From a virus (Duplodnaviria; Heunggongvirae; Uroviricota; Caudoviricetes), in IMG/VR virus record IMGVR_UViG_3300031413_000001: a DNA stretch of 64,000 nucleotides. One strand, written 5' to 3'. The position numbers were made by a program, and so were the translations under genes. The stretch's first letter is position 1. Every line of letters starts with the position of its first letter. Positions 19,245 through 63,729 of the stretch are shown here, in pieces. The notes under the pieces are model-generated. The model had not been told where the DNA came from, did no database searches, and worked only from the letters and a program-made list of their open reading frames with translations.

Positions 19245-19269
19245 CTAAAACTTCTCTCAGGAGAATCAC

Positions 19270-26750: not shown

Positions 26751-26860
26751 AGACCAGTAATTATAGCTCGCCATATCTCGGTGTCGTAGGGAGCCTGAAA
26801 TACCGCGTGACAGTTAGCCAATTTGGTGCTAGCGGGGTCCGCGCAATACAGGAGTTCTCA

Positions 26861-31146: not shown

Positions 31147-31170
31147 TACCCAGATCAACAAGGAGACCCA

Positions 31171-32908: not shown

Positions 32909-33030
32909 GTCCTCACTGATTGCTTGGGAGGGGCTGGACCAAAAGGTCTGGCCCCTTTTCTGTCTATTCTGTTGTAGACATGCGTGGAATTGGTGCTAGT
33001 AATGAGTCAGTGTTAAGCAAAAGGGATACG

Positions 33031-33690
33031 ATGAGCAGCAACATGGTCAGTAAGGTAGCAGCCGGCACCGGAGCGGCCTGCGTGTTCGTCGGCGGTCTCG
33101 CTGGCCTACCCTTTCCCTTCATTGGGGATCTTCTGGTCAGCACACCACTGGCGGCCGTGACGGGAATGGGCATCTGGTACTTTTGGCCAGGTCGTCGTCC
33201 AATCACCAAGGCAGAGGTCGAGCAGATCTTCGCCGATCAGGACAAGCTGAAGAACAGCAGCGGCGTTTCCAACAAGGAAGTCGTCGAGACCATCAAGTTG
33301 GTCTCCGACAAGCTGGATCGCATTCTGATGGAGGCCAGCAGCCTGAAGGGCCCCAATACGATCCGGCGCATCAAGCATCTGGATGCTGTTGGTCGGAAGA
33401 TCATCGAAGACTTCCGCCAGGATCCGTCGGACATCAAGCGCGCACAGAGCTGGATTCACAGTTATCTGGACCAGACGCTGGATTGCGTCAAGCAATACGC
33501 GCAGCTGAGCCGGAACGGTGCCCGCAGCATCGACGCGCAGCGGCAAATGGCGCAGTTCGACGACCTCTTGGACTTGCTGCATAGCAAGAGCCAGGAACTG
33601 CTCGACCATCTTCTCACCAACGACACCACCAACATGCAGGTAAACGTGGAAGTCTTCCGCGACATGCTCAACAACGAAGGGATCAAGTAA
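33031..33690 (+). CDS. XpaC-like membrane protein (5-bromo-4-chloroindolyl phosphate hydrolysis protein family, tentative)
   Basis: Two N-terminal TM helices (AAGTGAACVFVGGLAGLPFPFIGDLLV, LAAVTGMGIWYFW) followed by a helical soluble domain. Position immediately upstream of the TelA-like gene mirrors the Bacillus xpaC-yaaN pair. Start uncertain (33031 or 33040). Confidence 0.45.
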   Translation: MSSNMVSKVAAGTGAACVFVGGLAGLPFPFIGDLLVSTPLAAVTGMGIWYFWPGRRPITKAEVEQIFADQDKLKNSSGVSNKEVVETIKLVSDKLDRILMEASSLKGPNTIRRIKHLDAVGRKIIEDFRQDPSDIKRAQSWIHSYLDQTLDCVKQYAQLSRNGARSIDAQRQMAQFDDLLDLLHSKSQELLDHLLTNDTTNMQVNVEVFRDMLNNEGIK

Positions 33691-33692
33691 CC

Positions 33693-34856
33693 ATGGTAGA
33701 GACTGTTACGGCAACCGCAGTGGACACTTCCACGCTGATGCCAACCCCGGAACCGATCGGCAGCACGGCACTGGTAAGTCTCGCACCCGCGGGCACTGCA
33801 ATCCAGGTCAGCAAGGTGTCGCCGGAGCGCGCCAAGGAACTGGCGAAGAAGATCAACATTCGCGACACGCAGAGCATCATCGGCTTTGGCGTCGAAGCGC
33901 AGAAGAGCGTGTCGGCCGTTTCGGATCAGATGCTCGACGGCGTCCGCACCAAGGACACTGGCCCGGTCGGTGATTCGCTGAACCTGATGGTTCACGAGAT
34001 GCGCGGCCTGGACTTTGGTTCGCTGAGCCAGAAGCAGGGCTTCATCAGCAAGCTTCTCCGGAAGGCCAGCCGGGTCACGCTGTTCCTGGAGCAGTATGAG
34101 ACCGTGCAGAGCAAGATCAACAAGACGCAGGCCGTCCTGGAAGGTCACCGGGTCAACATGCTCCGCGGCGTGAAGATGCTCGATCTTCTCTACGTGAAGA
34201 CGCTGGAACTTCTCGGTTCGCTCGATGAGCAGGTCGCCGCAGTCCAGTACAAGCTGGAAGAAGTCAACACCATCGATATCCCGCAGGCCAATCAGAAGGC
34301 CCAGGAATCGCAGGACATGGCCGACACCCAGCTGGCCGCGGATCTGATTCAGGCGCGAGATGCACTGGAGCGCAAGCTGCATGATCTCCAGCTGACCCGT
34401 CAGATCACCATCCAGGCACTGCCCAGCATTCGCATCGTGCAGAGCAACGAGATTGGCCTCTCGGAGAAGATCCAGAGCCAGATCCTCAACGCACTGCCAC
34501 TGTGGAAGCGCAACATGGCACTGGCCATCGAAATGGCGAAGACGCAGAACGCCGCGAAGGCAACCAAGGCGGCTTCGGACTTCACCAACGAGCAGCTTCG
34601 TATGGGCAGCGACATGCTCCAGCAGAGCAATCTCGCAGTCCGCAAGGAAGTCGAGCGCGGCATCGTGGACGTGGACAGCGTCAAGTACGCCAACGACAAG
34701 CTGATCCAGACCATCGAGGACACGATCACCATCGCGCAGGAAGGCAAGAACATGCGCGCGGCGGCCGAGACCGAGTTGGCAGCGGCCGAGCAGCAGCTGA
34801 AGCAGACGCTGCTCAGCGCAGCGCAGCGCCAGGCAAACATGAAGGCAATCGCCTAA
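33693..34856 (+). CDS. TelA-like toxic-anion-resistance family protein
   Basis: 387 aa, all-helical. Regions GFGVEAQKSVSAVSDQMLDGVRTKDTGPVGDSLNLMVHEMRGLDF and QILNALPLWKRNMALAIEM are characteristic of TelA/YaaN/KlaA. Confidence 0.7.
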   Translation: MVETVTATAVDTSTLMPTPEPIGSTALVSLAPAGTAIQVSKVSPERAKELAKKINIRDTQSIIGFGVEAQKSVSAVSDQMLDGVRTKDTGPVGDSLNLMVHEMRGLDFGSLSQKQGFISKLLRKASRVTLFLEQYETVQSKINKTQAVLEGHRVNMLRGVKMLDLLYVKTLELLGSLDEQVAAVQYKLEEVNTIDIPQANQKAQESQDMADTQLAADLIQARDALERKLHDLQLTRQITIQALPSIRIVQSNEIGLSEKIQSQILNALPLWKRNMALAIEMAKTQNAAKATKAASDFTNEQLRMGSDMLQQSNLAVRKEVERGIVDVDSVKYANDKLIQTIEDTITIAQEGKNMRAAAETELAAAEQQLKQTLLSAAQRQANMKAIA

Positions 34857-34933: not shown

Positions 34934-35374
34934 ATGAACAAAAGCATCCTCACTGCACTTGCGGGACTTCTCGCGGTAACGACTCCGGCAGCTCTCGCAG
35001 CGCCGTTGAGCACCAACAGCTACGACTATGATGTCGTGGGCATCTACGATGGTGACACCTTCTACATCAAGATGGTCGGCCTTCCCCCAGAGCTCCAGCG
35101 TATTGGTGTCCGCGTCCGCGGCATCGACACTGCGGAAATGAAGGGAAAGTGTCAGAGCGAGAAGAGCACCGCTGCCGGCGCCAAGGCATTCACCACGCGA
35201 ATCCTCAAGCAAGCTGGCAACCGAGTAACGCTCCGGGGTCTCAAGTGGGACAAGTACGGCGGTCGTGTGGATGCTGATGTGTTCGTTGGCGGCGAGAGTC
35301 TCTCCAACATGATGATCACACGTGGATATGCCCGTCCCTACATGGGCGGCAAGCGAGCAGGATGGTGCGAATGA
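34934..35374 (+). CDS. secreted thermonuclease (staphylococcal nuclease/SNase fold)
   Basis: Signal peptide MNKSILTALAGLLAVTTPAALAAP. SNase motifs YDGDTFY, VRVRGIDTAE, KYGGRVDADVFVGG. Confidence 0.75.
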   Translation: MNKSILTALAGLLAVTTPAALAAPLSTNSYDYDVVGIYDGDTFYIKMVGLPPELQRIGVRVRGIDTAEMKGKCQSEKSTAAGAKAFTTRILKQAGNRVTLRGLKWDKYGGRVDADVFVGGESLSNMMITRGYARPYMGGKRAGWCE

Positions 35375-35934
35375 CCGAAGTTTTCGAGTTCTTCTACGGC
35401 GGCTACGCGAGTCAGTGGGCGCCCAGCGATTTCATCATCGGCGGCGTCAAGTATAACTGCGCCGAACAGTACATGATGGCCGAGAAGGCCCGCATGTTCA
35501 ACGACGATGACGCGCTGGAAATCATCATGGGGACCAACAACCCCAAGGTGCAAAAGGCCACCGGTCGGACGGTCAAGAACTTCGACAAGCACAAGTGGGA
35601 CCTGGAGCGAAAGCTGATCGTCTATCGTGCCAATCTCGCCAAGTTCACACAGAACTCCGAGTTCCTCCTGTGGCTCCAGGGAACCAAGGGCCGGACGCTG
35701 GTCGAGGCCAGCCCCTGGGACACCATCTGGGGCATTGGTCTGGGGGCAGAAGATCCTCGGGCACAGAGCCGGAACACCTGGCTGGGAACCAACGATCTAG
35801 GCGAGATCGTCACGCAGGTCCGTGAGGACATTGAGTGGATGCACTTCGCACAGGCCGGCACGGACAAGCTCAAGAGGGCCAAGTTCATCGGCGGCACGAT
35901 GGTTCCCATCGGTGATGACGGGCTGCCAAAGTAA
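35371..35934 (+). CDS. NADAR (YbiA-like, DUF1768) domain protein
   Basis: ATGA overlap with the nuclease stop. Motifs FFYGGYASQWAPS, YNCAEQYMMAEKARMFND, LVEASPWDTIWGIGLG. Confidence 0.7.
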   Translation: MTEVFEFFYGGYASQWAPSDFIIGGVKYNCAEQYMMAEKARMFNDDDALEIIMGTNNPKVQKATGRTVKNFDKHKWDLERKLIVYRANLAKFTQNSEFLLWLQGTKGRTLVEASPWDTIWGIGLGAEDPRAQSRNTWLGTNDLGEIVTQVREDIEWMHFAQAGTDKLKRAKFIGGTMVPIGDDGLPK

Positions 35935-39945: not shown

Positions 39946-41079
39946 ATGTTGGACAAGTTGATGACGGACGCGACGAAGAAGTTGAGCGAGGCTTTTGCCG
40001 AGGCCGGCTTCGAGATCCGCTTCGTCGGCGGCTGTGTCCGGGATGCCATCTTGGGTGTTGTGCCCAAGGATATCGACTTCACCACCGATGCAACGCCCGA
40101 CGAGATGAAGGACATCACGTTGGCCAACAGCTTTAAGTTCATGCCCACCGGGATCGATCATGGCACGGCGACCATCGCGGTCGATGGTGAGATGTTCGAG
40201 GTCACGACGTTGCGCGTGGATGCAGAGACGGATGGTCGTCATGCAACAGTGGTCTTCACGCGCAGCTTCGAGGTCGACGCAGAGCGCCGCGATTTGACCA
40301 TCAACGCAATGTCGATGGACATGGACGGCAATGTCTACGACTACTTCGGTGGTATGCAGGACTTGAAGGACAAGGTTGTCCGCTTTGTTGGTGTGCCGGA
40401 GATGCGCGTCCAAGAGGACTACTTGCGTATCTTGCGCTACTTTCGTTTTGCGGCACGGTTCGACAGCACGATGGACCAGGACACGTTGGACTTGTTCAGC
40501 GAGGGCGAGGTCTTGGACAAGTTGAACACCGTCTCGGTGGAGCGTTTCTGGCAGGAGATGCAGAAGTTGTTGGACCCGTCGATGCCGGCGCGCACTCGGG
40601 TTGTGGACGCAATCTTCCGCACTCGGGTCAACCGGTCGTTGGGGTTCTTCCGTTTCAACCCCGTCGAGGTAACGCGGAGCGATGATGCAGTGTCGGCTTT
40701 GGCCTCGTTGGTCTATGAGCAGGACATGACGCGATTCTTCGAGTTCTGGGCGTTGAGCTCGGCCGAGCAGAAGAAGATCGAATGGTTGGTGCGTAACCGC
40801 AGCACGCCATTGGACGAGCGGGTGGTCATGAACATGATGACGCGGAACAAGGCTCCGCGTGATTTTGTGGTCAGCTTGGCCGAGATGATGGGGGAGCCCA
40901 CGTTGGCCGAGTTCGCTCGGAACTACGTGGTGCCGACCTTCCCGGTAAAGGGGGACGACTTGATCGCCGCTGGGATGAAGCCGGGGCCCGACATGGGGCG
41001 TCGCTTGGAGCGCATGAAGGACGCATGGGCGTTCAGCAGCTTCAACAAGTCCAAGGACGAGTTGATGGAGGTTGAGTGA
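39946..41079 (+). CDS. tRNA nucleotidyltransferase (CCA-adding enzyme) / poly(A) polymerase family
   Basis: Head-domain motifs FVGGCVRDAILG...PKDIDFTT, RRDLTINAM and ED..RILRYFRFAARF. Confidence 0.8.
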   Translation: MLDKLMTDATKKLSEAFAEAGFEIRFVGGCVRDAILGVVPKDIDFTTDATPDEMKDITLANSFKFMPTGIDHGTATIAVDGEMFEVTTLRVDAETDGRHATVVFTRSFEVDAERRDLTINAMSMDMDGNVYDYFGGMQDLKDKVVRFVGVPEMRVQEDYLRILRYFRFAARFDSTMDQDTLDLFSEGEVLDKLNTVSVERFWQEMQKLLDPSMPARTRVVDAIFRTRVNRSLGFFRFNPVEVTRSDDAVSALASLVYEQDMTRFFEFWALSSAEQKKIEWLVRNRSTPLDERVVMNMMTRNKAPRDFVVSLAEMMGEPTLAEFARNYVVPTFPVKGDDLIAAGMKPGPDMGRRLERMKDAWAFSSFNKSKDELMEVE

Positions 41080-45373: not shown

Positions 45374-45826
45374 GTGCCACTGCTAGACGAAACGGTATCA
45401 GAGGAAAGCATGAGCTTTCTCGACGAAGCCTCGGCACACTTTCTTCGTGCGATCAAACAGCATTACACACGGGACACGGCCGTGGATGTGATGGAAGCCC
45501 TGTCGCCCATTCTGGGCAAAGACTGGAAGGGTCGCGTCATTTTTGGCATCATGGCCAACAAGTACAAGAACATCCGCAATCTGCGGATCATCAAGAATGT
45601 CAACGATGGCGTGGTGCAAAAGATCAACGCCATCAAGGAAGTCCGTATGTTGACCGGCATCGGTCTCACGGAAGCCAAGAACCTGGTGGAAACGGCATAC
45701 TACCAGCCCATGGATGTGCTGATGAAGACTCCTCCCCAGGACTTCACCTCGCAGGACTGGGACCGCCAGATTCAGACATCAATAACCGTCCTGCGTAATG
45801 CAGGCTTCAGCGTGGAGATCGCATGA
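45374..45826 (+). CDS. protein with ribosomal bL12 (L7/L12) C-terminal-domain-like segment
   Basis: GTG start after GAAGGAGA. KINAIKEVRMLTGIGLTEAKNLVE closely matches the bL12 CTD consensus K(I/V)xVIKxVRxxTGLGLKEAKDLVE. The N-terminal 80 aa are unrelated. Confidence 0.6.
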   Translation: MPLLDETVSEESMSFLDEASAHFLRAIKQHYTRDTAVDVMEALSPILGKDWKGRVIFGIMANKYKNIRNLRIIKNVNDGVVQKINAIKEVRMLTGIGLTEAKNLVETAYYQPMDVLMKTPPQDFTSQDWDRQIQTSITVLRNAGFSVEIA

Positions 45827-47454: not shown

Positions 47455-48807
47455 TTAAAACTTTACCTTCTTCAAGGCCTCTACTTCTTCGCGGTAGAGG
47501 TCTTTTCGTACCTGTGGATCCTTCAAGATCCTGTTGTACTCCTTGATGTTGGCCTTTAGTTCCTTGATCTTGTCTAGGACCTGCTGATATGCGTCCTTGG
47601 TCCAACGATGGGCCGGTAGGTTGACGATGCGGTCGATTCGCTTGTCATCCAGCTTGAGCTTGATCGTTACCTTGTTGACATCTTGATCCAGTTCCACTCG
47701 GCTCTTGATCGCACCCAAGCGCGCTGGCAGTTTGTCATCAAAGCATAGCTTGACACCTTCCCAGAAGCCCAGCTCGTAGCTGTCCTTGTCAACCTTGTTC
47801 TGATAGCGTGTTGCGTACCAGTTCAAACGCCATGCCACAAAGTCCTCGACAACCTTCTCGGCGTTCTCATACTGACGGATTGCCTTGCCGTTCCAGTCGA
47901 TGACCACGATGCGCTCGCTCTTCTTCTGGCGTAGCTTGAAGTAGTCAATGATCTTGGCCTGGTCCCAGCCCTTTACCGCACCACGTGCCATCTTGACCGT
48001 GATGTCGATGGTGTCTGTGGAGCGATCAGTGTAGGTGCTGATCTTGCCATCGTCCTCGAATGTGTTGAGTCGTTCCTTGAACTTTTCCAGTGTGAGCTCT
48101 GGCGGCAACTCGGTGATCTTAACCGTCGAAGTGTCGAGGACCTCAGCCTTGCCAGTGAACTCCCAGGAGTTTTCCTCAAGGTGCTGAACGCCAACGTTGT
48201 AGAGTTCGTATGCTGGTGGAATCCTCTTGAGCTTTTTACCGTCTAGGACGTCCAGCGTGGCCTGAATCAAGCTCTTAAAGCTGCGGGGCAAGATCTCCGT
48301 TGACCAGCCCACAGCGATGCCGGAAACACCGTTTAGAAGCACAGTGGGGATCAGGGGGAGAAAGTGCTGCGGCTCAATTGTGGAGCCGTCGTAGTTTTCC
48401 TTGGTTGGCACAATGTCCATGTCGGGGAACATCAGTTCCATTGCTGCCTTGCCACGCTTGACGTATGTGTAGCGAGGAGCACCAATACCATCAACGGGAG
48501 CCACGCGAGTACCAAACGATCCAATGCCATCTAGAAGTGGCACGTTGTTGACATAAGGAGCGGCCAGCATGGAGATCGAACCGGCCGCCGAGGCGTCGCC
48601 GTGAAGATACAATCCGCTGCTGATCATCTCACCTGCCAGCGAGACTGTCTTGATCTTTTCACTCTTGCCCTTGACAAGCCAGAGTGCTTTGCGTTGTGCG
48701 TCCTTTAGACCGTCGGCAACCTTGGGGATTGCGCGGCTTTCGCAAACGTAGATGGAATATTCTCGACTGGTGTCTAGGATATAATTGGATGAGCTATTTT
48801 GGGTCAT
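47455..48807 (-). CDS. DNA topoisomerase II, GyrA/ParC-N-terminal-like subunit (T4 gp52-like)
   Basis: 450 aa. YSIYVCESRAIPKVADGLKDAQRKALW; active-site Tyr region PRYTYVK; tower/winged-helix segments. Confidence 0.85.
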   Translation of the reverse strand: MTQNSSSNYILDTSREYSIYVCESRAIPKVADGLKDAQRKALWLVKGKSEKIKTVSLAGEMISSGLYLHGDASAAGSISMLAAPYVNNVPLLDGIGSFGTRVAPVDGIGAPRYTYVKRGKAAMELMFPDMDIVPTKENYDGSTIEPQHFLPLIPTVLLNGVSGIAVGWSTEILPRSFKSLIQATLDVLDGKKLKRIPPAYELYNVGVQHLEENSWEFTGKAEVLDTSTVKITELPPELTLEKFKERLNTFEDDGKISTYTDRSTDTIDITVKMARGAVKGWDQAKIIDYFKLRQKKSERIVVIDWNGKAIRQYENAEKVVEDFVAWRLNWYATRYQNKVDKDSYELGFWEGVKLCFDDKLPARLGAIKSRVELDQDVNKVTIKLKLDDKRIDRIVNLPAHRWTKDAYQQVLDKIKELKANIKEYNRILKDPQVRKDLYREEVEALKKVKF

Positions 48808-53180: not shown

Positions 53181-53436
53181 CCCACGTCAACTTGAAGATC
53201 ATCTGTTCCACTTTGTTCTTACAGTGGATATTGATGCGGGTCTTGTACCCACCATCAGCAGCTTGAGTACTTGGATTTCTGTCATAGGACGTTGCGATTT
53301 TGTGGCTTGGCATCATTTTATCGAGCCAAGCCACAAAGCTATCATAGTCGTCCGTCGTCACTGCGCCAAACCAAATATCTTCGAAAAGAGGGTGTGGTCC
53401 ACAGTGACGCATATCAACCCTCACAGGCCAATCCAC
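53167..53436 (-). CDS. FKLxWGG family small protein (array copy 16)
   Basis: C-terminus HCKNKVEQMIFKLTWGGSV. Its start overlaps the end of the gp39-like gene. Confidence 0.55.
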   Translation of the reverse strand: MDWPVRVDMRHCGPHPLFEDIWFGAVTTDDYDSFVAWLDKMMPSHKIATSYDRNPSTQAADGGYKTRINIHCKNKVEQMIFKLTWGGSV

Positions 53437-55289
53437 TCCTTGCGGTCATCGGAACGCTTGCTGTTGAAGATCAGATCCAACGTTTCACCCATTGTGCCGT
53501 CATCGGTCACAGGATAAACTTCTGGGTTCTTCAGCGAGTACTCCCAATCCTCACGAGTTAGAGTACCAAGACCCTTTGCGCGAGTGATAGCCCAGCCGCT
53601 GTAATCTTCGGGCTTGAAGTCCTGGTAGTTGTGGGCGTACCAGTACTTTCTCAGCTTTCCCTTTTCCGCAATGATGAATGGTGTGCGGAAGATGTACACG
53701 AATGGCTTGGCCTGATCAGCGAACAGCTCTGGCCAATATGTGTGGAAGAAGTTGATCAACAGCGCACCAATGTTCAATCCGTCCGGATCCATGTCGTGCG
53801 CCACATAGACCTTGCCATAGCGAAGATCGCTCAGCTTGGCCTTTTGACCAATGACCAGTCCCATGCAGTTCATGATGTCCGCGAGCTCTTTGTTCTCAAT
53901 GACCTTCTTGGGCATTTCGCCGTTGACGTTGAGAACCTTACCCTTCATTCCCAGACCACCATGCAGATCAGGATCACGAGCAGCGCCCATTCCCGAAATA
54001 GCACTTTCACCCTCTGCTAGGAAGAGAATGCACTTGGTGCGATCCTGACCAGCAGCGTCCATCAAACGAGGAACCTTGTTTCGTAGGTTCTTCTTGCTGG
54101 CCTTCGCTAGATCGCTGATGTCCTTTTTCATCGTGCGCTCAGAACAACGCTTGTAGATTTCCTCAATCCAGTCACGATTCTTGCGGATGAATTCCTTGTA
54201 GAGTTCGGGGTTCTCAAGATCAGCGCGGATGACCTTGCCCACTTCCTCATTGATCAGTCGAGTCTTGCTCTGGCTGTCAAAGTTCGGACCGTTCATGTTC
54301 GTGATGTTGTAGATCAGAACACCTTCCGTTACGTCGGAGCGGTTGGGGCTGAGCTTGCGGCGCTTGCTTTCCTTTTCCAGTGCGGTCAAAAGATTGCCGT
54401 AGAATAGGCGACGGAATGTCTCGATGTGGACACCGCCGTTGAAAGCAGGAATGTTGTTGACGATGGTGTGAACGTGATCTCCACCAGTTGTCCAATTGGG
54501 AACAATCCAAAAGCGACTACGGAAGTCCTCTGCCTTGATTTCAATGGCCATTGGCTTCAAGCCCGGAAACAGCGTTTGCTCTGGCCTTGGCTTTACCTTG
54601 ATCAGCTCTCCGTTGTAGAAGATCTTGATCAGTGGGTTGCAGATCGCAACCTCGGTGATGCGACTGCGGACAAACTCCTCGGGAAGCGTCATGTCGGGGA
54701 AGACTGCCTCGCTGAGCTTGAACGTTACCTTGGTGCTGTTCTCACCCTTTCGAGCATTGATTTTGGTCTTGCCAAATTGCAGCTCATCGTTGGCAGCCGT
54801 TCCCTGAGTGAACTCCTGCTGAAAGCGTTCGCCATCCTTTTGAATGTCCAGTCGGAAGAACTCGCTGCAGAAGTTGACCACCGATGCACCAATACCATTG
54901 GTACCGGCAACCTGGCCACGCTCTTCAAAGTTACGTCCGGCTCGTGCCTCGGTCATAACCAGTGTTGCAAGGTGCATGTTGTGGGCATCATCCCAGGCGA
55001 TTGGGATACCGCGACCATCATCCTCAATGGAGATTTCACGACCAACCGGATCATAGGTTACCTTAACGCGCGTTCCGTGACCATGACCAACAACCTCGTC
55101 GAGTGCGTTGTCGAGCACCTCGCGAAAAGCCGTATATAGTGCAGGGACCCAAGTGATCTCCTGAGGCACAGGCATGCCGTCTTTGATCTGCAGAATCGTC
55201 TGCGTGTGAGGGGCACGACTTCCCAGATACATCTCCGTTCGGAGTCTGGCGTGCTGATAATCTGTGAGTTTCTTGATTTTGTTTGACAT
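53421..55289 (-). CDS. DNA topoisomerase II large subunit, GyrB-like ATPase plus TOPRIM (T4 gp39 plus gp60 equivalent, unsplit)
   Basis: 622 aa. GHKL ATPase motifs (EVLDNALDE, DDGRGIP, GTNGIGAS). TOPRIM ILFLAEGESA...VYVAHDMDPDG. Length indicates the gp39 and gp60 parts are in one polypeptide. Confidence 0.9.
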   Translation of the reverse strand: MSNKIKKLTDYQHARLRTEMYLGSRAPHTQTILQIKDGMPVPQEITWVPALYTAFREVLDNALDEVVGHGHGTRVKVTYDPVGREISIEDDGRGIPIAWDDAHNMHLATLVMTEARAGRNFEERGQVAGTNGIGASVVNFCSEFFRLDIQKDGERFQQEFTQGTAANDELQFGKTKINARKGENSTKVTFKLSEAVFPDMTLPEEFVRSRITEVAICNPLIKIFYNGELIKVKPRPEQTLFPGLKPMAIEIKAEDFRSRFWIVPNWTTGGDHVHTIVNNIPAFNGGVHIETFRRLFYGNLLTALEKESKRRKLSPNRSDVTEGVLIYNITNMNGPNFDSQSKTRLINEEVGKVIRADLENPELYKEFIRKNRDWIEEIYKRCSERTMKKDISDLAKASKKNLRNKVPRLMDAAGQDRTKCILFLAEGESAISGMGAARDPDLHGGLGMKGKVLNVNGEMPKKVIENKELADIMNCMGLVIGQKAKLSDLRYGKVYVAHDMDPDGLNIGALLINFFHTYWPELFADQAKPFVYIFRTPFIIAEKGKLRKYWYAHNYQDFKPEDYSGWAITRAKGLGTLTREDWEYSLKNPEVYPVTDDGTMGETLDLIFNSKRSDDRKEWIGL

Positions 55290-55835: not shown

Positions 55836-55927
55836 AAACAGTGCTACGGAGGAAGAAGCGGAATTCCTAATCTTCCCGAGACACGCAACCTCGCGATGCG
55901 CGATCTTTTGATTAGGAGAATACCTTG

Positions 55928-56353
55928 ATGGCTAAACTGCACAAGCACCTCATTGTACATGCCGCTGTTGACAAACCACCCGTTAAAAAGGACGAACGGT
56001 TTGTAGAGCAGTGGCTTACAGATATCGTTCACGCAATGGGAATGGAAGTTCTAAAGGACGCCAGCGCAGAATACTGCGAGCAAATTGGCAACCGCGGAAT
56101 GACCGCAGTGGTTCTTATCACCACTTCCCACATGGTGCTTCATACTTGGGATGAGTGCGAACAGCCATTCATCGAGTTTGACCTCTACACCTGCAGCGAA
56201 TTGGATCCAGAGATGGCATTCAAGGCCCTGGAGGCGTTTGGTGCCAAGAACATTTCCTACAAGTTCCTGGATCGTTACGACGGTCTGACGGATCTGACTC
56301 CAGTGGTCAAGAAGACCTTCTGGGAGAAGCTCAAGGATCTCTTCAGCTTCTGA
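55928..56353 (+). CDS. S-adenosylmethionine decarboxylase proenzyme (small bacterial/archaeal AdoMetDC type)
   Basis: AGGAGA lies 8 nt before the ATG at 55928. Motifs LIVHAA, GMTAVVLITTSHMVLHTWDE (processing-site Ser-His region) and IEFDLYTC. Confidence 0.65.
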   Translation: MAKLHKHLIVHAAVDKPPVKKDERFVEQWLTDIVHAMGMEVLKDASAEYCEQIGNRGMTAVVLITTSHMVLHTWDECEQPFIEFDLYTCSELDPEMAFKALEAFGAKNISYKFLDRYDGLTDLTPVVKKTFWEKLKDLFSF

Positions 56354-56441: not shown

Positions 56442-57848
56442 ATGGCATTCATCATTTTCATCTTCTTCGTCGCAGCGGCTATCAGCAGCGTAGCGGCGTA
56501 CTTTTCCCTTGTGGGTCTGGGCAGCATCTTTGCCGCGACTTTCTGGGGAGTCGTCATCATGGGCGGTGCCCTGGAAGTCGGCAAGATCGTAACTGCCAAA
56601 TGGGTTCATGCAAACTGGCGTAACCCTGCGGCCCCCTGGTACTTTAGAGGTCTTCTCTGCTTCTTTGTTGCGGCATTGATGGCCATTACAAGTCTGGGCA
56701 TCTATGGCTATCTGAGCCGGGGACACCTTGAACAGCAGGCACCACTCGCAGGACTAAGCGTACAGGTTGCCCAGCTGGAAACCCAAGTTCAGCAAAAGAC
56801 GGCCGAGAACTCCACGCTTCAAAAGCGATTGGATCAGATTGGACGTATCACGGACAAGAGTCTCGAGACTTCGGGACGTGCTGGTCTGCGGGCTGCGGCT
56901 TCTCAGCGCCGTGACACCACGGAACTGCAGGGTAAGATTGATGCCAACAACCAGGCAATCAATCAGCTCAACGGCCAGCTGGTTCCACTCAAGCTGAAGA
57001 CTGGCAACGTCGAGGGAGAACTGGGCGTTGCCAAGTTCATCGCCGAAGCGGCTGGTTGGAGTCCTGAAAAGGCAATCCGCATCATCATCGCTCTGATCAT
57101 GAGCAGCTTTGACACCCTGGCACTCAGCATGTTCATCATGGGAAGCATCTCACTCAAGCAGCGTCGGGAAGCCAAACGTCGTGAAGCAGCGGGAGAACTG
57201 GGCGACGTATTGCCCATTGAGGAACTGATTGTGCCCATGCCACCAGTAACCGAGCCGGCAGCCAACCGCTTTGTCGGCGATACCAGTGATGCTATCACGA
57301 TCATCAAGAGCGATGGTCCAGCTATCAACCTTCTCCAAGAACGTCCTGCTCGCCCAGCAATGAGCGAGGAGCAAGTTGAAGAGTTCAAGGCCAAGCTGGA
57401 AGCAAAGTTCATGGCCGACCTGCAGGAAGCTGCAATGGCGGAGCGTGATCAGTTGCTGGATGATCTAAACAAGCAGATCTACCAGGAACGTGAGGAGTTC
57501 GACACCTACATGGAAGAAGCAAAGAGTGTCCTAGACACCGAAGCTGGAACCATTGAGGAGCAGAAGGCAAGTCTTGCACAAGATCATGCTGCATTGCAGG
57601 ATGCTCACCAGCAGTTGCTCGACATGGAAGCCCGCTTGAATGATGAGCGTGAACTACTGGCACAGTGGCAGCAACAGCTTACTGATCAGCAGAACACCAT
57701 CAACACTTGGGCACCAGAGTCCGATCCAACCGATGGTCGTTCCGACAAGGACAAGATCATCTCCATGTTGGAGCGCAACCCACAGGTTGTCAATGACATC
57801 ATTGAAACCGTTGACGCAATGAGGCCCCTGGTCAAGCCGGGTCTATAA
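56442..57848 (+). CDS. membrane protein with long C-terminal coiled coil
   Basis: Four N-terminal TM helices (FIIFIFFVAAAISSVAAYFSLVGLGSIF...), a further helix IIIALIMSSFDTLALSMFIMG, and a Gln/Glu/Leu-rich coiled-coil C-terminal half. Confidence 0.55.
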   Translation: MAFIIFIFFVAAAISSVAAYFSLVGLGSIFAATFWGVVIMGGALEVGKIVTAKWVHANWRNPAAPWYFRGLLCFFVAALMAITSLGIYGYLSRGHLEQQAPLAGLSVQVAQLETQVQQKTAENSTLQKRLDQIGRITDKSLETSGRAGLRAAASQRRDTTELQGKIDANNQAINQLNGQLVPLKLKTGNVEGELGVAKFIAEAAGWSPEKAIRIIIALIMSSFDTLALSMFIMGSISLKQRREAKRREAAGELGDVLPIEELIVPMPPVTEPAANRFVGDTSDAITIIKSDGPAINLLQERPARPAMSEEQVEEFKAKLEAKFMADLQEAAMAERDQLLDDLNKQIYQEREEFDTYMEEAKSVLDTEAGTIEEQKASLAQDHAALQDAHQQLLDMEARLNDERELLAQWQQQLTDQQNTINTWAPESDPTDGRSDKDKIISMLERNPQVVNDIIETVDAMRPLVKPGL

Positions 57849-57952
57849 TGCAAATGGCTCCCGGAGGCGTTACAACGCTTCTGGGAGCAGGCCCCAAAGG
57901 CCAAGATCGGCGCAGCTAAATATCAAACGCACCGGGAGTCTGAGGATAACAT

Positions 57953-59206
57953 ATGAGTGAAAAGAAGAATCTGAGCTGCTCTTTTTGTGGTAAGAAGCAA
58001 GAAGCCGTTCAGAAGCTGATTGCTGGTCCGGATGTCTTTATCTGTAACGATTGTGTTCAGCTCTGTGCCGATATCCTAAAGGAAGACGACAACACGGCAA
58101 CCAAGATGCCGGTAAAGGATGGGGCCATTCCCAGCCCTCGTACCATTCGTGAGTTTCTCGATCAGTATGTGATCGGCCAGGAAGCTGCCAAGATGGTCAT
58201 GAGCGTGGCGGTCCACAACCATTACAAGCGGTTGGCCAATCCAGTGGTTGATGATGTTGAGCTCGAGAAGTCCAACATTCTCCTACTGGGCCCAACGGGC
58301 AGCGGTAAGACACTTATGGCAAAGAGCATTGCCAAGCTACTGGATGTTCCCTTTACTATCGCAGACGCCACCAGCCTAACTGAGGCGGGCTATGTGGGTG
58401 ACGATGTTGAAACCATCATCACTCGATTGCTGCAGGTTTGCGACAACGATGTGTCCAAGGCGGAACGCGGCATCATCTACCTCGACGAGGTGGACAAGAA
58501 GGCCAAGAAGAGTGAAGGCTCCAGCGTTAGCAGGGACGTATCGGGCGAAGGCGTTCAGCAGGCACTCCTGAAGATCATCGAAGGCTCAGAAGTTCGTGTT
58601 CCCGTACAGGGCAACCGAAAGCATCCCAACAGCGAGATGGTGGTTGTAAATACCAAGAACATCCTGTTTATCGTTGGTGGTGCATTCGTTGGTCTTGATG
58701 AGATCATTGGAAAGCGCCTCAACAAGGGCAAGGGCGGAATTGGCTTTGGTGCATCTGTTAAGTCGGACATTGACAAGGATGTATCCAGTGCCCTCTTGAG
58801 CCAGGTTGAGCCAGAGGATCTTACCAAGTATGGTCTGATTCCTGAAATGGTTGGCCGTCTCCCAGTTATCACACACTTGGAGGAGTTGGACCAGGACCAG
58901 TTGGTCAAGGTTCTCACTGAGCCCAAGAACGCGCTTATCAAGCAGTTTGAGAAGATCTTCCAGCTGGAAGATGTCAAGCTGGACTTTGACAAGGAAGCCC
59001 TTCGTGCCATTGCCAAGGACGCTATCACTCGGAAGACGGGTGCTCGTGGTCTGCGGTCCGTTATTGAAAAGCGGTTGATCCGCGTTCAATATGACCTCCC
59101 TGACCTTAAGGAAGCTGGAGCAACAGCTATCCGCGTGGGCAAGGATGTCATTGAAGGAAAGAGCGAGCCACTGGTGGTCTATGACCCCAAGGCAGCAAAC
59201 GAGTAA
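57953..59206 (+). CDS. clpX: ATP-dependent Clp protease ATP-binding subunit ClpX
   Basis: Zinc-binding CSFCGK...CNDC. Walker [16 protein letters not shown] pore loop. Walker [10 protein letters not shown]. Sensor/IGF region RVPVQG...; C-terminal SRGLR. Confidence 0.9.
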
Positions 59207-59272
59207 TTGACGCAGTGGGGGTAGAAGTTATAGGCTTCCACTTGTATCCAATCGAAAGGAAATGATCTGTCT

Positions 59273-59794
59273 GTGAACTCTCAGTATGCGGTAAACGACC
59301 AAATTCGGGCAAGGGAGGTTCGCCTCATTGCCGACAACGGTGATCAGTTGGGCGTCATCCCAACCATTGAAGCGCGTCGTCGTGCAACAGTGGCCGGCTT
59401 GGACCTAGTTGCCATCAACATCAGCAATGGTGTTCCAATCTGTAAGATCCTCGACTACGGCAAGTTCAAGTATGAGCAGAGCCGGAAAGAGCGTGAGAAC
59501 GCAAAGAAGAACCGCGAGAGCCGGGTGGAGCTCAAGGAAATTCAGTTGCGGCCGACCACTGATAGCAATGACATTCAGATCAAGGCCAAGAGGGCGCAGG
59601 GCTTCCTGAATGATGGCGACAAGGTAAAGGTCGTGATGAAGTTCAAGGGTCGTGAGATCACCCACTTGGATGTTGGTGCCGACGTTATGGTCAGCTTTAT
59701 CAACGCCCTGACTGATTACAAGCTGGAACGCCCAATCAGTAGAAGTGAGCGCCAGTTGTTTGCCATCATTATGCCGGCTCCCAAAAAGGCATAA
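59273..59794 (+). CDS. infC: translation initiation factor IF-3
   Basis: GTG start. NDQIRAREVRLI, LDLVAI...PICKILDYGKFKYE, KEIQLRPTTDSNDIQIKAKRAQGFLNDGDKVKV...KFKGRE are the canonical IF3 N- and C-domain motifs. Confidence 0.85.
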   Translation: MNSQYAVNDQIRAREVRLIADNGDQLGVIPTIEARRRATVAGLDLVAINISNGVPICKILDYGKFKYEQSRKERENAKKNRESRVELKEIQLRPTTDSNDIQIKAKRAQGFLNDGDKVKVVMKFKGREITHLDVGADVMVSFINALTDYKLERPISRSERQLFAIIMPAPKKA

Positions 59795-59817
59795 CTTACA
59801 CTTAACACAGATAACAG

Positions 59818-59851
59818 AAGCCACGCAGAAATGTGTGGCTTTTGTCTGTTT
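59818..59851 (+). terminator. intrinsic terminator after infC
   Basis: aagccacgc-agaaat-gtgtggctt followed by ttgtctgttt. Confidence 0.7.
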
Positions 59852-60157
59852 GGGCACAGGTTATCGTACTTTTGAACGTTAACCAAAGCGTCATGTTGTG
59901 AGACTGTCATGCGATAAAAACGCTGGAAGTCGCTGGTTTGCATGGTTTATTGTGACTGGGAGACTACCTACAGCGCACCGTATCCGGCACATTTTGTTAC
60001 AAAATTATGATTTTACGCCTTGCAAGCGCATCACGTAGATTGTAGTTTAATTTTTGCAACCGACACTCTAACAGGAGTGGAACGTTGTAGGGAATTGGCC
60101 GGGTCGCACCATCAATCTCCTCATCGACGCAGTGAGTAACAGGGAGAGGCCCGAAGT

Positions 60158-60559
60158 ATGGGTGTCGTGCATCTTTTTGGTCCACCCGAGAGTGGATCAG
60201 GTGAGGAATTGGCCAAGGCCAACAAGGGGGAAGCTGACGAGAACTCCGGGGAGTCTTGTCAGGTAATTGAGCTACATCGTAACAAAAAGATCGCTCGTGG
60301 TCTTCATCCCAACCTGGTGTTCAAAGAGATTGAAACTCTCTTGGTCCAACAGGGTATGGATCTTGGTTGTGAAAAAGCCAGAGCGGACTATAAAGTGGTC
60401 ACTTACTTGGTGCAGGGTTTGATCGACAGGGCTAGCGGGACAACTACGGATCGCAGCTTTTTGTTGGATACTTTGCGCCACGTGTTGGCTTACGAGGAGG
60501 CTGTGAATACCTATGAAACCAACGAGCTCTTTGGAGACCTGCTCGGTCGTCTCAACTGA
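60158..60559 (+). CDS. hypothetical protein
   Basis: 133-aa ORF following a 360-nt non-coding stretch. Confidence 0.45.
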   Translation: MGVVHLFGPPESGSGEELAKANKGEADENSGESCQVIELHRNKKIARGLHPNLVFKEIETLLVQQGMDLGCEKARADYKVVTYLVQGLIDRASGTTTDRSFLLDTLRHVLAYEEAVNTYETNELFGDLLGRLN

Positions 60560-60948
60560 AGGCGGAAAATCGGTCAAGGCCGATATCCTGAAGAAAAGCG
60601 ACAAGAGCATTCGCGTTGCCTTTCATGGAAGCAACATCGTGTTGAACCTCAACCGTACGGATACGAGGCGGCCCTACGTGGGCAATCTGCACGGAATGGA
60701 ATTCACCACGGGTGGCTAATCCAACGGGAACGCCACAGACGCTCAAGGAAGCACATCACAGGGGGTGGCTTGCTGGGGTCGCGCTTCGGCTGGGACATGG
60801 CGTGCCGGGGCGGAATCCCTACGATAGGGACGCTGTAGAGCATTTGGAATGGGACATTGGTTTCGACGAAGGCTTCAACGATGGATTCGAAGAAGCCGGT
60901 TGACTTCCTGGTCTCCTGTGTTAGCTTGTTTGAAACGAGGGAGACCAA

Positions 60949-61695
60949 ATGTTCCATGATCTAAAAGGCGTCGTCGATAACATCCTTCGGGGAGAGTTCC
61001 CCGAGGGACGAATCGAAATCAACGACCAGATCCTCGTAGTCAACGAGGCAGCGCATCTCGTCGCCAAGAACCGCCCAGGCGGTGACAGTCAGCGCGAAGA
61101 AGCCAATTCCCTCATCCTCTGGCTCGCAGGTCTTCACCCGGACATTTTCGTCTACGGTGCCCAGCTGATGATCAAGCATCACGGTGTGCATTTCACCTAC
61201 GATGAAAAGACGGCTGTCCGAATGGACACCATCGAGGACAAGTTCTTCCGTGCCACGCCCTACAAGGTCAGCACCTACAACGAGATCGAGCATTTTGCTT
61301 GGCCGCAGCGATTCCTCGATGACAGCACGTTCGAGGAGCGGCTGGCCAATCTCGCCGAGGAATACGAGCCCGACGAGAGCCCAGCTGATATGCTGCTCAG
61401 CGGCATGGCAATCCCCGATGATTTGAACTATGATCAGCGTTTCCAGCTGGCCAAGGACTGCATCGCGGATATCGACGCAATGCACAAGCGGTATGGGAAG
61501 ACCAACATTCTGATCAACGAGCGCCTGGACAGGTTCCTGGGATGGCTCCTGACCGTTGATCCGGAACTGATGATCATGGCCGTCCGGTCCCTTCTGGTCA
61601 GCACGAAGGTTGAGCTGAATCCCAAGGCACTGACCAACATGCAGGCAATACTGCAGGTTGCGGGGCCCTATATCAGGCCGCTGGGTCGCGCCTAA
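60949..61695 (+). CDS. hypothetical protein
   Basis: 248-aa ORF. The antisense 174-aa ORF is judged a shadow. Confidence 0.5.
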   Translation: MFHDLKGVVDNILRGEFPEGRIEINDQILVVNEAAHLVAKNRPGGDSQREEANSLILWLAGLHPDIFVYGAQLMIKHHGVHFTYDEKTAVRMDTIEDKFFRATPYKVSTYNEIEHFAWPQRFLDDSTFEERLANLAEEYEPDESPADMLLSGMAIPDDLNYDQRFQLAKDCIADIDAMHKRYGKTNILINERLDRFLGWLLTVDPELMIMAVRSLLVSTKVELNPKALTNMQAILQVAGPYIRPLGRA

Positions 61696-62216
61696 TTAGT
61701 GACATGATATGGTTCCAGTGTTATAACTGGGACCATACATACCAGCACTGGTAATCCCTCGCCCGGAAGAAGACGGGATGGATGAGCCGCTGGAGGCGAC
61801 TGGCTATCATTGTGGGGCTCGACTCCCCAACGCGCAAGCGGAGGTTGCTGCCAGGATAAAGAACAGCGCCAATGGTTGTGAGCTCTCGCCTCGACTGCGA
61901 ACTCACTGCCCAACGTGTGCCACTTGGAAGGTGCAAGTTGGGACACCGCCACCAATCCAGGATAGCTAGATGAAAAGACGACAGGGTGACCCCGTCGCAG
62001 AGTCCGCTCTGCTTTAGTTCCAAGGTGTCATGACAGCCTCTAACTGCAAGACATTCTATTCCCTTTACGAGTGCGGACCCTGTCCCTATCGTAAGGGGGA
62101 TAATGGTGTGGCTTCTTGCCTACTGCAAGTTACTAACGCGTTCGCTGTTCGCTCTCTTGTCTTTCCAGTCATAGCCATTCAAAGTATCTGGCTCCAAGAC
62201 CAATCGTAAAAGCCCA

Positions 62217-62247
62217 CAGAAAAGTCCTCCCAGAACCCCAGGAGGAC
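62217..62247 (-). terminator. intrinsic terminator for the minus-strand lipoprotein operon, flanked by 17-nt direct repeats
   Basis: On the minus strand: gtcctcctgggg-ttc-tgggaggac followed by ttttct. Direct repeats gaccaatcgtaaaagcc lie at 62198-62214 and 62245-62261. Confidence 0.6.
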
Positions 62248-62270
62248 CAATCGTAAAAGCCGGAAGCTAG

Positions 62271-62603
62271 TTAGTCGCAGAACCTAGCACGGAGTTCCTC
62301 GATAGTGGGTTCAACGGCCATTGCTCCCGTCTTGTTGTTCTCCCAGACTTTCATCGTTACTGGGAACTCAGAGCCGAGCGGAACCTGTTTGTAGTTGGAA
62401 CACCTTTTTGCCAGATAGATGTCCTCATAGACGGTTCCGTTTTCCACATCCATCATGCTGACATGAAGATGCTTGGGTGGCTCCACATCCACGACACGCA
62501 GGATCCGCTTTTGTTCCGGAAGTTTGATCCAGGGACTGGGACCACAGGCCGTTAGAAGCCCTGCGATTGCGAGGACGGCAGCGCGCATCAGCTGGTACCC
62601 CAC
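62271..62603 (-). CDS. lipoprotein (function unknown)
   Basis: Signal peptide with lipobox MRAAVLAIAGLLTAC. 110 aa. Confidence 0.5.
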   Translation of the reverse strand: MGYQLMRAAVLAIAGLLTACGPSPWIKLPEQKRILRVVDVEPPKHLHVSMMDVENGTVYEDIYLAKRCSNYKQVPLGSEFPVTMKVWENNKTGAMAVEPTIEELRARFCD

Positions 62604-63001
62604 ACAATGTGAACGCGAGCCTTGGTGCTTGCCAGTGCTGCCCGCAGCTTTACAGACAGCTTCATGTTGGCATTGGTTTCACCGACCAGCGCATCGTATT
62701 CCAGGATCTTGTCCATCGACGGCGTGCAGAGCGCGATCATTTCCTCGCCGGTAATGGCCGTGCATTCATCGAACTGTCCAAGTTCGAGACCAAACCACGC
62801 CGGCTGGTCACCGCCTCCGCTGTAGCGGGCTTCAAAGCCCTTGATGGGATCCGTCTGCCCGTACATCTTGGTGTCGTCGGGTTCGCCATTGAGAGCCTTG
62901 TAGAGCTCCGAGCGATGTGCGGCCCAGGGGTCTGGCGTGTTGCTGTATTCGCTGTGACCAAGGTCGATTCCCAGGATCACATATCCGATCGTGTATGCCA
63001 T
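62588..63001 (-). CDS. hypothetical protein
   Basis: GGAG precedes the internal ATG (MAYTIGYVILGIDLG...). The listed ORF extends further 5' without an RBS. Confidence 0.5.
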   Translation of the reverse strand: MAYTIGYVILGIDLGHSEYSNTPDPWAAHRSELYKALNGEPDDTKMYGQTDPIKGFEARYSGGGDQPAWFGLELGQFDECTAITGEEMIALCTPSMDKILEYDALVGETNANMKLSVKLRAALASTKARVHIVWGTS

Positions 63002-63115
63002 TGGCTTCTCCTTCTCCGCCCAGTTAGCAGATTGATTCCATTGTGCAACCAGAATATTGAGAACTTGGTGCCCTTTCTGTATAACTAAGGGGTAACCAAA
63101 AGAGGAGATCCCACA

Positions 63116-63379
63116 GTGGGACAGCATTACAACGGAAACGGTCGAGAGATCCACAAGCGGGGTCTAGCCGTTGAAGTCAAGCCAGCTCACAATCCCGAGC
63201 AGGCTCTCAGGAACCTTGACAGTGCAATGAAGACGCTCAAGCGTCGCACCATTCAAGAGGGCCTGATCCGCGATATCCGTCGGAAGGAATTTGCGGAAAC
63301 CAAGGGGCAGATTGCCCGCAAGAAGCGTCAGGATGCGATTCGTCGCTCCAAGAAGCGTCTGCGTCAGCCGGCTGTCTAA
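63116..63379 (+). CDS. rpsU: ribosomal protein bS21-like protein
   Basis: VEVKPAHNPEQALRNLDSAMKTLKRRTIQEGLIRDIRRKEFAETKGQIARKKRQDAIRRSKKR parallels the bS21 pattern V.V..NE..ALRRFK...K.G.L.E.RRREFYEKP...RKR...A..R..KK. Has a 15-aa N-terminal extension. Confidence 0.55.
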   Translation: MGQHYNGNGREIHKRGLAVEVKPAHNPEQALRNLDSAMKTLKRRTIQEGLIRDIRRKEFAETKGQIARKKRQDAIRRSKKRLRQPAV

Positions 63380-63729
63380 TGGTGCCGGGTCCTGATCTGG
63401 ATGCAGATATTGCCCGTAAGGTTCTTGGTGTCATCGTAATAAGTGACACCAAGACCGGAAAGTATCAACTCCGAGACACTGCCAATAGGCGGTTTCTTGA
63501 TGTTCCCCCATACAGCACGGACACCACAACCGCGCATGAGTTGATCAGCAAGTACAAGGCAGCGGGCTGCACCTTTCAGATCAATGCCCCCAGGGAAGAT
63601 GATCAGTGGAATGTGACCATCTCTCATCCGCAGATCTCTGGCGTGAACTTTGGAGCAGGTGGAAGCACCTTGCCCCACGCGATATGCCAGGCGATTCTGC
63701 AATTCTCCCAACTCTTTAAGATTGGATAA
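63379..63729 (+). CDS. hypothetical protein
   Basis: 116-aa ORF, ATGA-coupled to the bS21-like gene. Confidence 0.45.
   Translation: MVPGPDLDADIARKVLGVIVISDTKTGKYQLRDTANRRFLDVPPYSTDTTTAHELISKYKAAGCTFQINAPREDDQWNVTISHPQISGVNFGAGGSTLPHAICQAILQFSQLFKIG

Follow-up and report, generated by a model that had tools for sequence, protein, structure and literature searches.

A 64,000-nucleotide stretch of tailed-phage DNA (IMG/VR record IMGVR_UViG_3300031413_000001; the whole stretch is called the window here) encodes a complete ClpX unfoldase, a translation initiation factor IF3 and an N-terminally extended homologue of ribosomal protein bS21, and these genes stand in the same order in all the related phage contigs that were examined, an arrangement that is far beyond chance. 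We favor, with a probability of about 0.6, the reading that these genes serve two parallel functions, i.e. a viral arm for proteolysis and quality control and a set of viral initiation components, which would have been inherited as an auxiliary block of a jumbo phage of ~464 kb. The three open reading frames (ORFs) had been proposed in a preliminary description of the sequence, and profile searches (NCBIfam, Pfam, PHROG and Rfam), together with PDB chain alignments, tblastn and ARAGORN, located all of them where that description had placed them on the + strand (Table 1), each one passing the curated profile cut-offs.

The ClpX protein, which matches the NF003745 equivalog over almost its whole length, also scores 574.6 bits against TIGR00382 (cut-off 370.75), and contains the Pfam domains zf-C4_ClpX (PF06689, 64.5 bits), AAA_2 and ClpB_D2-small. 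When it was aligned to E. coli ClpX in PDB entry 8e91, its zinc finger (CSFCGK...CNDC) matched the E. coli zinc-binding domain, the Walker A (GPTGSGKT), pore-1 (GYVG), Walker B (DEVD), pore-2, RKH loop, arginine finger and sensor II elements were identical or conservatively replaced, and the GARGLRS motif was intact. The same alignment placed the IGF loop, through which ClpX docks on ClpP, at residues ~259-267 (GKGGIGFGA). The start codon of clpX is an ATG located 6 nt downstream of a Shine-Dalgarno (SD) sequence, GAGGA. Across the phage ClpX clade, of which 114 full-length sequences were compared, GYVG is invariant, sensor II is present in 113 sequences, and the docking tripeptide [I/M]GF is found in all 114. 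Since such conservation of the IGF loop is not expected for a ClpP-independent chaperone, the phage ClpX most likely acts together with a ClpP, probably that of the host. The protein would be a complete substrate-unfolding ATPase that docks on host ClpP, which is the most likely partner, or on a phage copy encoded elsewhere in the genome.

Two further genes may contribute to this proteolytic arm. A ClpS adaptor homologue is encoded ~3 kb past the end of the window, 8 kb downstream of clpX, with NUDIX and DUF3307 genes after it; all close relatives have kept it, and in a distant lineage it lies 2 kb from the ClpX-IF3 pair. The window encodes a transfer-messenger RNA (tmRNA) whose tag ends in ...RLAA. 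A C-terminal LAA is the recognition signal of E. coli ClpX, and by analogy a functional link between the tmRNA and ClpX through the end of the tag is plausible. ClpX, the phage ClpS adaptor and the tmRNA with its LAA tag could together allow the phage to control regulated proteolysis and to clear the products of stalled ribosomes in the course of a long infection.

The initiation factor encoded next to ClpX contains both IF3 domains (IF3_N, PF05198, 94.6 bits; IF3_C, PF00707, 87.5 bits) and aligns end to end with the PDB chains 5me0_Y and 8jsg_A. Its linker, KYEQSRKERENAKKNRESR, is basic and aligns to that of the PDB IF3 proteins, and the basic residues of the C domain (LRP, KFKGRE) are conserved. 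Bacterial infC genes are autoregulated through an AUU start codon. When the homologous codon was compared in the window and 11 relatives, it was GTG in the window and in 8 relatives (including Phosso and Atu_ph07), TTG in one and ATG in the distant lineage; an AUU start was found in 0 of the 11 relatives, nor was there an in-frame AUU with a ribosome-binding site. A GUG in the place of the AUU suggests that the viral infC has presumably escaped AUU feedback and is free of the corresponding autorepression. In agreement with the preliminary description, the flanking ORFs matched neither clpP nor tig, nor thrS, rpmI or rplT, when searched with Pfam and NCBIfam; the infC-rpmI-rplT context is missing, with no match to L35 or L20 among the ORFs downstream of infC.

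The bS21 assignment, also proposed beforehand, survived the profile searches, with 34.6 bits against TIGR00030 (cut-off 28.95) and 32.9 bits against PF01165 (cut-off 27), and the protein matches as well the PHROG family 'ribosomal protein S21' (phrog_21469) and the PDB bS21 chains (E = 1.4e-5). Canonical bS21 proteins have 55-71 amino acids and start at a conserved beta-strand, and the window protein departs from them both in length and at its N terminus. The N-terminal extension was borne out by the alignments, in which the profile match begins at residue 33 and residue 12 of the PDB bS21 aligns to residue 34. This extension, of ~16-22 amino acids, is basic and aromatic (segment (M)GQHYNGNGREIHKRGLAVEVKPAH) and carries a motif, GxHYNGNGRxIHKRGLxVEVKP, that is conserved in the clade. 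Translation starts at a homologous codon in the relatives (GTG, with ATG in three lineages), and a strong SD sequence, AGAGGAGA (63101-63108), is located 8 nt upstream of the start in the window. The conserved extension, the homologous start and the strong SD sequence therefore indicate that the extension is real and translated. The IF3 protein, made from a GUG start without AUU autorepression, and the bS21 protein with its basic extension would load onto the host 30S subunit and sustain, and possibly re-bias, initiation; the earlier proposal that both proteins bias initiation toward viral messages is plausible.

The conservation of these genes was analyzed in the relatives of ClpX found on 11 IMG/VR contigs. 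Six close contigs present the full order topoisomerase large subunit, hyp138, S-adenosylmethionine decarboxylase (AdoMetDC), coiled-coil membrane protein, ClpX, IF3, variable ORFs, S21 and ABA-domain ORF, with ClpS and NUDIX farther on, and the order topoisomerase-ClpX-IF3-...-S21-...-ClpS is common to the cultured relatives and to at least 10 large metagenomic contigs. In the six close contigs the identity to the window proteins was 82-86 % for ClpX, 73-84 % for IF3, 79-84 % for S21 and 69-85 % for ClpS, and only 30-46 % for the ORFs located between infC and S21. The contrast between the high identity of ClpX, IF3 and S21 and the low identity of the spacer ORFs is direct evidence of purifying selection on these three genes, which are intact.

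These results bear on the possibility that clpX, infC and the bS21 gene are recently captured host passengers (morons) with no role in infection, which might be thought of because all three have cellular homologues and jumbo phages accumulate host-like genes. Nevertheless, the three genes are far better conserved than their neighbors across a large phage clade, and their catalytic and binding motifs are all intact. Moreover, when database IF3 proteins were ranked by identity, ~60 clusters on contigs of up to 470 kb descended from 100 to 65 %, Phosso-like proteins followed at 51-58 %, and bacterial proteins reached at most 52 % and came from scattered phyla; the ranking of ClpX was alike, its bacterial homologues beginning at ~60-64 %. 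Bacterial homologues of such low identity (up to ~64 % for ClpX and ~52 % for IF3), taken from scattered taxa and not from one host group, point to old phage lineages rather than to recent host captures, a statement on origin that is drawn from identity rankings. Recent capture has thus been largely refuted already, and we give it only a faint chance.

The preliminary description had also treated the three genes as a cluster. The clpX and infC genes are indeed adjacent, 66 bp apart and in the same orientation, and form a tight and deeply conserved pair, but the three genes do not behave as one functional unit. The bS21 gene starts 3.3 kb after infC, as had been noted; the ORFs in between are fast-evolving and two of them lie on the opposite strand, and the S21 stop codon overlaps the start of the following ABA-domain ORF (TAATG, 63377-63381). 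This pairing of S21 with the ABA-domain ORF is kept in all close relatives and is absent in Phosso and Atu_ph07. Because the spacer ORFs are so variable and partly antisense, and S21 is translationally coupled to the ABA-domain gene, the cluster is best described as inherited synteny and not as one operon. No family match was found for the spacer ORFs in Pfam, NCBIfam or PHROG.

The clpX-infC pair itself persists in relative L096 (ClpX 66 %, IF3 54 %), in Phosso and Atu_ph07, and in the distant lineage of 246-342 kb (ClpX 56 %, IF3 34 %), which makes it, as judged from these comparisons, among the most stable synteny in this jumbo-phage group. In the distant lineage the pair is preceded by the coiled-coil membrane protein and followed by genes for an S-adenosylmethionine (SAM) lyase, Hsp20, ClpS, a phosphorylase and an M17 aminopeptidase. 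The coiled-coil membrane protein, 468 amino acids long in the window, precedes clpX in all close relatives with 51-56 % identity, and its counterpart in the distant L098/L101 lineage (positions 8479-9990 of L101, 342 kb) is 37 % identical; no family could be assigned to it with Pfam, NCBIfam or PHROG.

Such persistence might suggest that clpX and infC are functionally coupled, either because the phage ClpX, alone or with ClpP, removes host IF3, bS21 or another initiation component and thereby lets the viral versions replace them, or because both genes belong with the coiled-coil membrane protein to one early takeover operon. The adjacency, with a gap of 33-70 bp, survives while identity falls from 100 to 56 % (ClpX) and to 34 % (IF3) in at least four lineages and the downstream genes are reshuffled, and the triad of coiled-coil protein, ClpX and IF3 is retained in the distant lineage. 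However, conserved adjacency is expected from common descent alone, the coupling would itself be read from gene order, and an invariant TTGAC between the two genes suggests that infC may own its promoter. We consider functional coupling very unlikely; in the reading that we favor, the adjacency would be ancestral synteny, and the conserved TTGAC would possibly mark a promoter that is shared or early.

This TTGAC (59207-59211) is located directly after the clpX stop codon and is invariant in 7 of 7 clade members despite variable flanks, and a conserved ribosome-binding site, GAAAGGAAA, lies farther down in the same spacer (59254-59262). The TTGAC may be an internal promoter for infC; a scan for sigma-70 promoters returned a background number of sites (6 vs 5.7 expected). 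A 4-codon upstream ORF overlapping the IF3 start (ATGATCTGTCTGTGA, 59262-59276) was considered and dropped, as it is not conserved in the relatives. A gap of ~360 bp without ORFs follows infC (59795-60157) in all relatives, and its 3' half contains conserved blocks that include an invariant GGGTCGC. Rfam gave no match to this gap, and its consensus fold is weak (-8 kcal/mol), so no RNA is claimed; it may be the promoter or 5' untranslated region of the next gene. Separately, a 13-bp hairpin without a U-tract (GCTCCCGGAGGCG-TTACAA-CGCTTCTGGGAGC, 57857-57888) was observed between the coiled-coil gene and clpX.

The preliminary description had presented the locus as one with ClpX and without ClpP. 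This is correct locally, because tblastn with E. coli ClpP found no ClpP in the window (best E = 1.4), and the ~98 kb of the ~464-kb genome that were covered, starting 10 kb upstream of the window and ending 30 kb downstream of clpX, contained none. As a description of the lineage it is misleading, since the two closest cultured relatives with complete genomes, Atu_ph07 and Phosso, have a genuine ClpP each, 64 % identical to that of E. coli and located away from the structural genes, at 27 kb downstream of clpX in Atu_ph07 and at ~117 kb from it in Phosso. A search of the collection with the clade-specific ClpP pattern G[A/E]PGHRYML at the DNA level retrieved Atu_ph07/Phosso-type contigs only; a broader pattern, DMERDxFMSA, gave at least 120 matches, and a protein scan of IMG/VR for ClpP at least 600. 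A scan anchored on ornithine decarboxylase retrieved no window-clade contigs. Among the best 120 database clusters against Phosso ClpP, only Phosso-group contigs (434,884 and 469,944 bp) were also present in the ClpX list, and the more than 10 large contigs of the window clade were all absent from these clusters. Where both genes are present in the two genomes of a pair, ClpP shows the higher conservation (79 % vs 60 % for ClpX in one case and 78 % vs 74 % in another), and a vertically inherited ClpP of the window clade should therefore rank near the top of that list. These comparisons tilt the balance toward a window clade that has no ClpP of its own and would need that of the host. When the flanks of the Phosso and Atu_ph07 ClpP genes were compared with the window, including those on the 434,884-bp contig, the NADAR gene was the only one in common, and synteny is consequently no guide to the position of a ClpP gene in the window phage.

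A different role for ClpX has been put forward for Atu_ph07 and AP-J-162 (PMC6102473, PMC11242549) and by Iyer et al. (PMC7824862), according to which the protein is related to replication. In this alternative ClpX would be a ClpP-independent chaperone with a remodeling role in the replication of phage DNA or the assembly of virions, comparable to its action on MuA and lambda O, and IF3 would be a mere neighbor. In its favor, clpX of the window, like that of Atu_ph07 and Phosso, lies beside the genes for the T4-type topoisomerase II subunits, and no ClpP was detected, either in the ~98 kb or, by the indirect tests described above, on the clade contigs. In contrast, the docking tripeptide in 114 of 114 clade members is difficult to reconcile with a chaperone that acts without ClpP, ClpX in the distant L101 lineage lies beside Hsp20, ClpS and an aminopeptidase and not beside topoisomerases, and a host ClpP is available anyway. 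We regard this alternative as unlikely.

Several points nevertheless weigh against the two parallel functions that we favor. The clpX gene adjoins topoisomerase genes in all relatives, which others have read as a role in replication; the partnership with ClpP would follow from motif conservation alone; and the window phage may have its own ClpP outside the ~98 kb covered, of ~464 kb. On the translation side, the bS21 profile scores are modestly above threshold, and the bL12-like match is partial, so that the translation toolkit appears less complete than it sounds.

Regarding this toolkit, the preliminary description had added a tmRNA, a CCA-adding enzyme and a bL12-like protein to IF3 and bS21. 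The tmRNA and a CCA-adding-type enzyme are present, but the match of the bL12-like protein is confined to a part of the C-terminal domain, with 62 % identity over 26 amino acids to E. coli L7/L12 in tblastn. The tmRNA belongs to the two-piece alphaproteobacterial class, which is consistent with a Rhizobiales-like host, and an alphaproteobacterial host of this kind would fit the window phage.

The window is part of an uncultivated jumbo phage. Its exact ClpX protein is encoded by 12 public contigs, including JGI contig Ga0308157_10000079 (IMGVR_UViG_3300031088_000008, 416,714 bp), the exact IF3 and ClpX proteins are also found on contigs of 463,863 and 463,849 bp, and the first genes of the window are present on a second, 44-kb contig from the same JGI sample. 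These matches therefore indicate a phage genome of ~464 kb, represented by IMGVR_UViG_3300031088_000008 and its sister contigs. The suspicion that the contig is bacterial chromosome, or a fragment bearing a prophage, with ordinary clpX, infC and rpsU genes, could be fed by the cell-like genes of the window (hybrid histidine kinase, PAS protein, flotillin, TelA and ribonucleotide reductase (RNR)). It fails, however, on the size of the contigs (416-470 kb, phage-sized, in IMG/VR), on the synteny with three cultured jumbo phages, on the PHROG virion protein, and on the absence of the canonical neighbors and, apart from the tmRNA, of any tRNA or rRNA gene in the window, which in addition encodes T4-type topoisomerase II subunits, RNR and a DnaB-like helicase. 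Furthermore, a scan of 185,579 bacterial species genomes, limited by patterns and not a true nearest-neighbor search, found no close ClpX, the matches being 52-57 % identical. A bacterial origin of this DNA is refuted for practical purposes, and its probability is next to nil.

Table 1. Features of the window and its 3' surroundings, in window coordinates
Feature	Coordinates	Strand	Match or remark
Virion structural protein	12967-14934		PHROG match
tmRNA, two-piece (alphaproteobacterial-type), tag ANDNTVVEARLAA	26300-26721	+	ARAGORN; Rfam alpha_tmRNA 90.2 bits, tmRNA_permuted 86.2 bits
NADAR-domain protein	35362-35934		Farther upstream than AdoMetDC
CCA-adding enzyme/poly(A) polymerase-family nucleotidyltransferase (PolyA_pol)	39946-41079	+	PF01743 117 bits
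150-aa protein, partial bL12 C-terminal domain	45374-45826	+	PF00542 35.2 bits, residues 82-108 only
Topoisomerase IV-A	47455-48807		Synteny anchor with topoisomerase II large subunit, common to Atu_ph07 and Phosso
T4-type topoisomerase II large subunit	53421-55289	-	Synteny anchor; identity 69.5 % (Phosso), 58.7 % (Atu_ph07)
AdoMetDC	55925-56353		Just upstream of the ClpX block
468-aa protein, N-terminal transmembrane segments and long coiled coil	56442-57848	+	Directly upstream of clpX; weak SMC-like coiled-coil matches only
clpX, 417 aa, full-length AAA+ unfoldase	57953-59206	+	NF003745 606.8 bits (residues 3-413; cut-off 359)
clpX-infC intergenic region	59207-59272	+	Alignment of 7 clade members
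infC (IF3), 173 aa, GUG start	59273-59794	+	TIGR00168 170.2 bits (cut-off 60)
infC-to-S21 variable spacer	59795-63115	both	ORF-free gap, then hypothetical ORFs
Spacer hypothetical ORFs	60158-60559(+), 60513-60719(+), 60949-61695(+), 62271-62603(-), 62588-63001/63154(-)		
bS21 homologue, 87 aa, N-terminally extended	63116-63379	+	TIGR00030, PF01165
Phage ABA-sandwich-domain protein	63379-63729	+	PF18066 30.3 bits
ClpS adaptor homologue	~67050-67350 (19102-19395 of source contig L004)		Pfam 94.9 bits

Some other features of the window and of the collections deserve mention. A hybrid histidine kinase (PAS-HisKA-HATPase-receiver, 26807-28567) is encoded directly after the tmRNA, and a separate gene on the opposite strand encodes a protein with four PAS domains (8033-9703(-)); sensory signaling genes of this type are unusual phage cargo. 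The genes for flotillin/SPFH and TelA (toxic anion resistance) occupy a stretch (31097-34856) whose GC content is 0.585, vs ~0.51, and which may be a separately acquired island. One clade member (protein clusters P0142/P0264) is located on an ENA contig of 958,096 bp, about twice the usual genome size, which is probably a concatemer or dimer assembly rather than a megabase phage. Several GenBank 'phage' records, for example Escherichia phage EC22.5-2, Staphylococcus SA 1306 Kay, Listeria LM 4-11-1 and Acinetobacter MD-2021a, look like host chromosomal DNA, and bear a ClpP 100 % identical to that of E. coli or adjacent clpP-clpX genes; the counts of 'phage' ClpX, ClpP and IF3 proteins are inflated by such records.

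With these results, the jumbo phages that carry ClpX, ClpS, IF3, bS21, bL12-like, tmRNA and CCA-adding genes gain a further clade, which is uncultivated and seemingly widespread and comprises dozens of contigs of 150-470 kb. Two details can be tested in cultured relatives, i.e. the viral infC without the AUU autoregulatory start, and the viral ClpX that always keeps its ClpP-docking loop, even where a viral ClpP is not evident; neither of them alters what is at present understood about the translation and proteostasis genes of phages. If the clade carries ClpX and ClpS without its own ClpP, the viral unfoldase and adaptor would re-program host ClpP, unlike the situation in the cultured relatives. 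A broader version of this idea, in which such a clade re-programs host ClpP and the clpX-infC pair and the coiled-coil protein form a takeover unit linking selective proteolysis (of host initiation components or of ssrA-tagged tmRNA products) to the replacement of host IF3 and bS21 by the viral versions, seems to us quite unlikely.

As to the known relatives, no match at the nucleotide level was found by megablast in 50,697 phage records, and the best GenBank phage matches for ClpX, IF3 and S21 were those of Sinorhizobium phage Phosso (469 kb; 65, 51 and 48-50 % identity, respectively) and Agrobacterium phage Atu_ph07 (490 kb; 57, 44 and 53 %). The protein identities of 44-70 % suggest that the window phage is related at a family-like level to Atu_ph07, AP-J-162 and Phosso, and the lack of nucleotide-level similarity places it in a different genus-level clade. 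With its ~464 kb it falls within the ~420-490 kb of this group, whose synteny of topoisomerase II, ClpX, IF3, S21 and ClpS it shares. In Phosso and Atu_ph07 the annotated genes for topoisomerase IV-A (-) and the topoisomerase large subunit (-) precede a small ORF, which is followed by ClpX (+) and IF3 (+), and S21 follows IF3 at 7 kb in Phosso, 1.3 kb in Atu_ph07 and 3.3 kb in the window. AP-J-162 and Phosso, jumbo phages of ~470 kb, share with the window the order topoisomerase-ClpX-IF3-S21; in contrast, the window clade has AdoMetDC and the coiled-coil membrane protein inserted before clpX and pairs S21 with the ABA-domain ORF, and the block of ornithine decarboxylase and ClpP present in Phosso was not found in it. 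In Atu_ph07 (Polybotosvirus), ClpX (gp2) is next to IF3 (gp1) and the topoisomerases, as in the window, and ClpS and ClpP lie farther in the same direction. The two phages differ in GC content (37 % in Atu_ph07, ~52 % in the window), in ClpP, encoded 27 kb downstream of clpX in Atu_ph07 and found nowhere within 30 kb downstream in the window phage, and in the tmRNA, which is present in the window phage and not reported for Atu_ph07 (PMC11242549).

Most of the elements described here have precedents in the literature, where the three genes are a conserved trait of a family of giant phages (~460 kb) whose hosts are Rhizobium-type bacteria. Attai et al. reported seven Clp-family proteins in Atu_ph07, including ClpA, ClpB, ClpP and ClpS (PMC6102473). 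In AP-J-162, IF-3 and the topoisomerases are the direct neighbors of clpX, and S21, L7/L12, IF-3 and the tmRNA are listed and read as redirecting host translation (PMC11242549). Iyer et al. discussed the ClpX and IF3 proteins of Atu_ph07 and the feeding of host ClpAP by phage ClpS (PMC7824862). In huge phages, Al-Shayeb et al. (2020) described IF3, S21, L7/L12, tmRNA and CCA-adding enzymes, interpreted as intercepting or redirecting the host's translation, as well as basic or aromatic N-terminal extensions on phage S21 proteins (PMC7162821). Such surveys range over numerous clades that are not related to each other and leave the linkage to ClpX aside, and function is hypothetical there as it is in the window. 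Reportedly, the translation-gene repertoires of huge phages were also the subject of Mizuno et al. in 2019 and of Chen et al. in 2022; PMC9723584 belongs to this literature as well.

Compared with the bacterial clpP-clpX and infC-rpmI-rplT operons, the window proteins are full-length, orthologue-grade matches with the known motifs intact, whereas clpP and tig, and thrS, rpmI and rplT, are missing, infC begins with GUG instead of AUU (with UUG or AUG in some relatives), and S21 is extended. Taken together, the gene set, the clpX-infC adjacency, the S21 extensions and the idea of translation redirection had already been published between 2018 and 2024, and what is added here to these known systems is the possible lack of an own ClpP, the non-AUU start of infC, the universal IGF loop of ClpX and the depth to which the clpX-infC pair is conserved.

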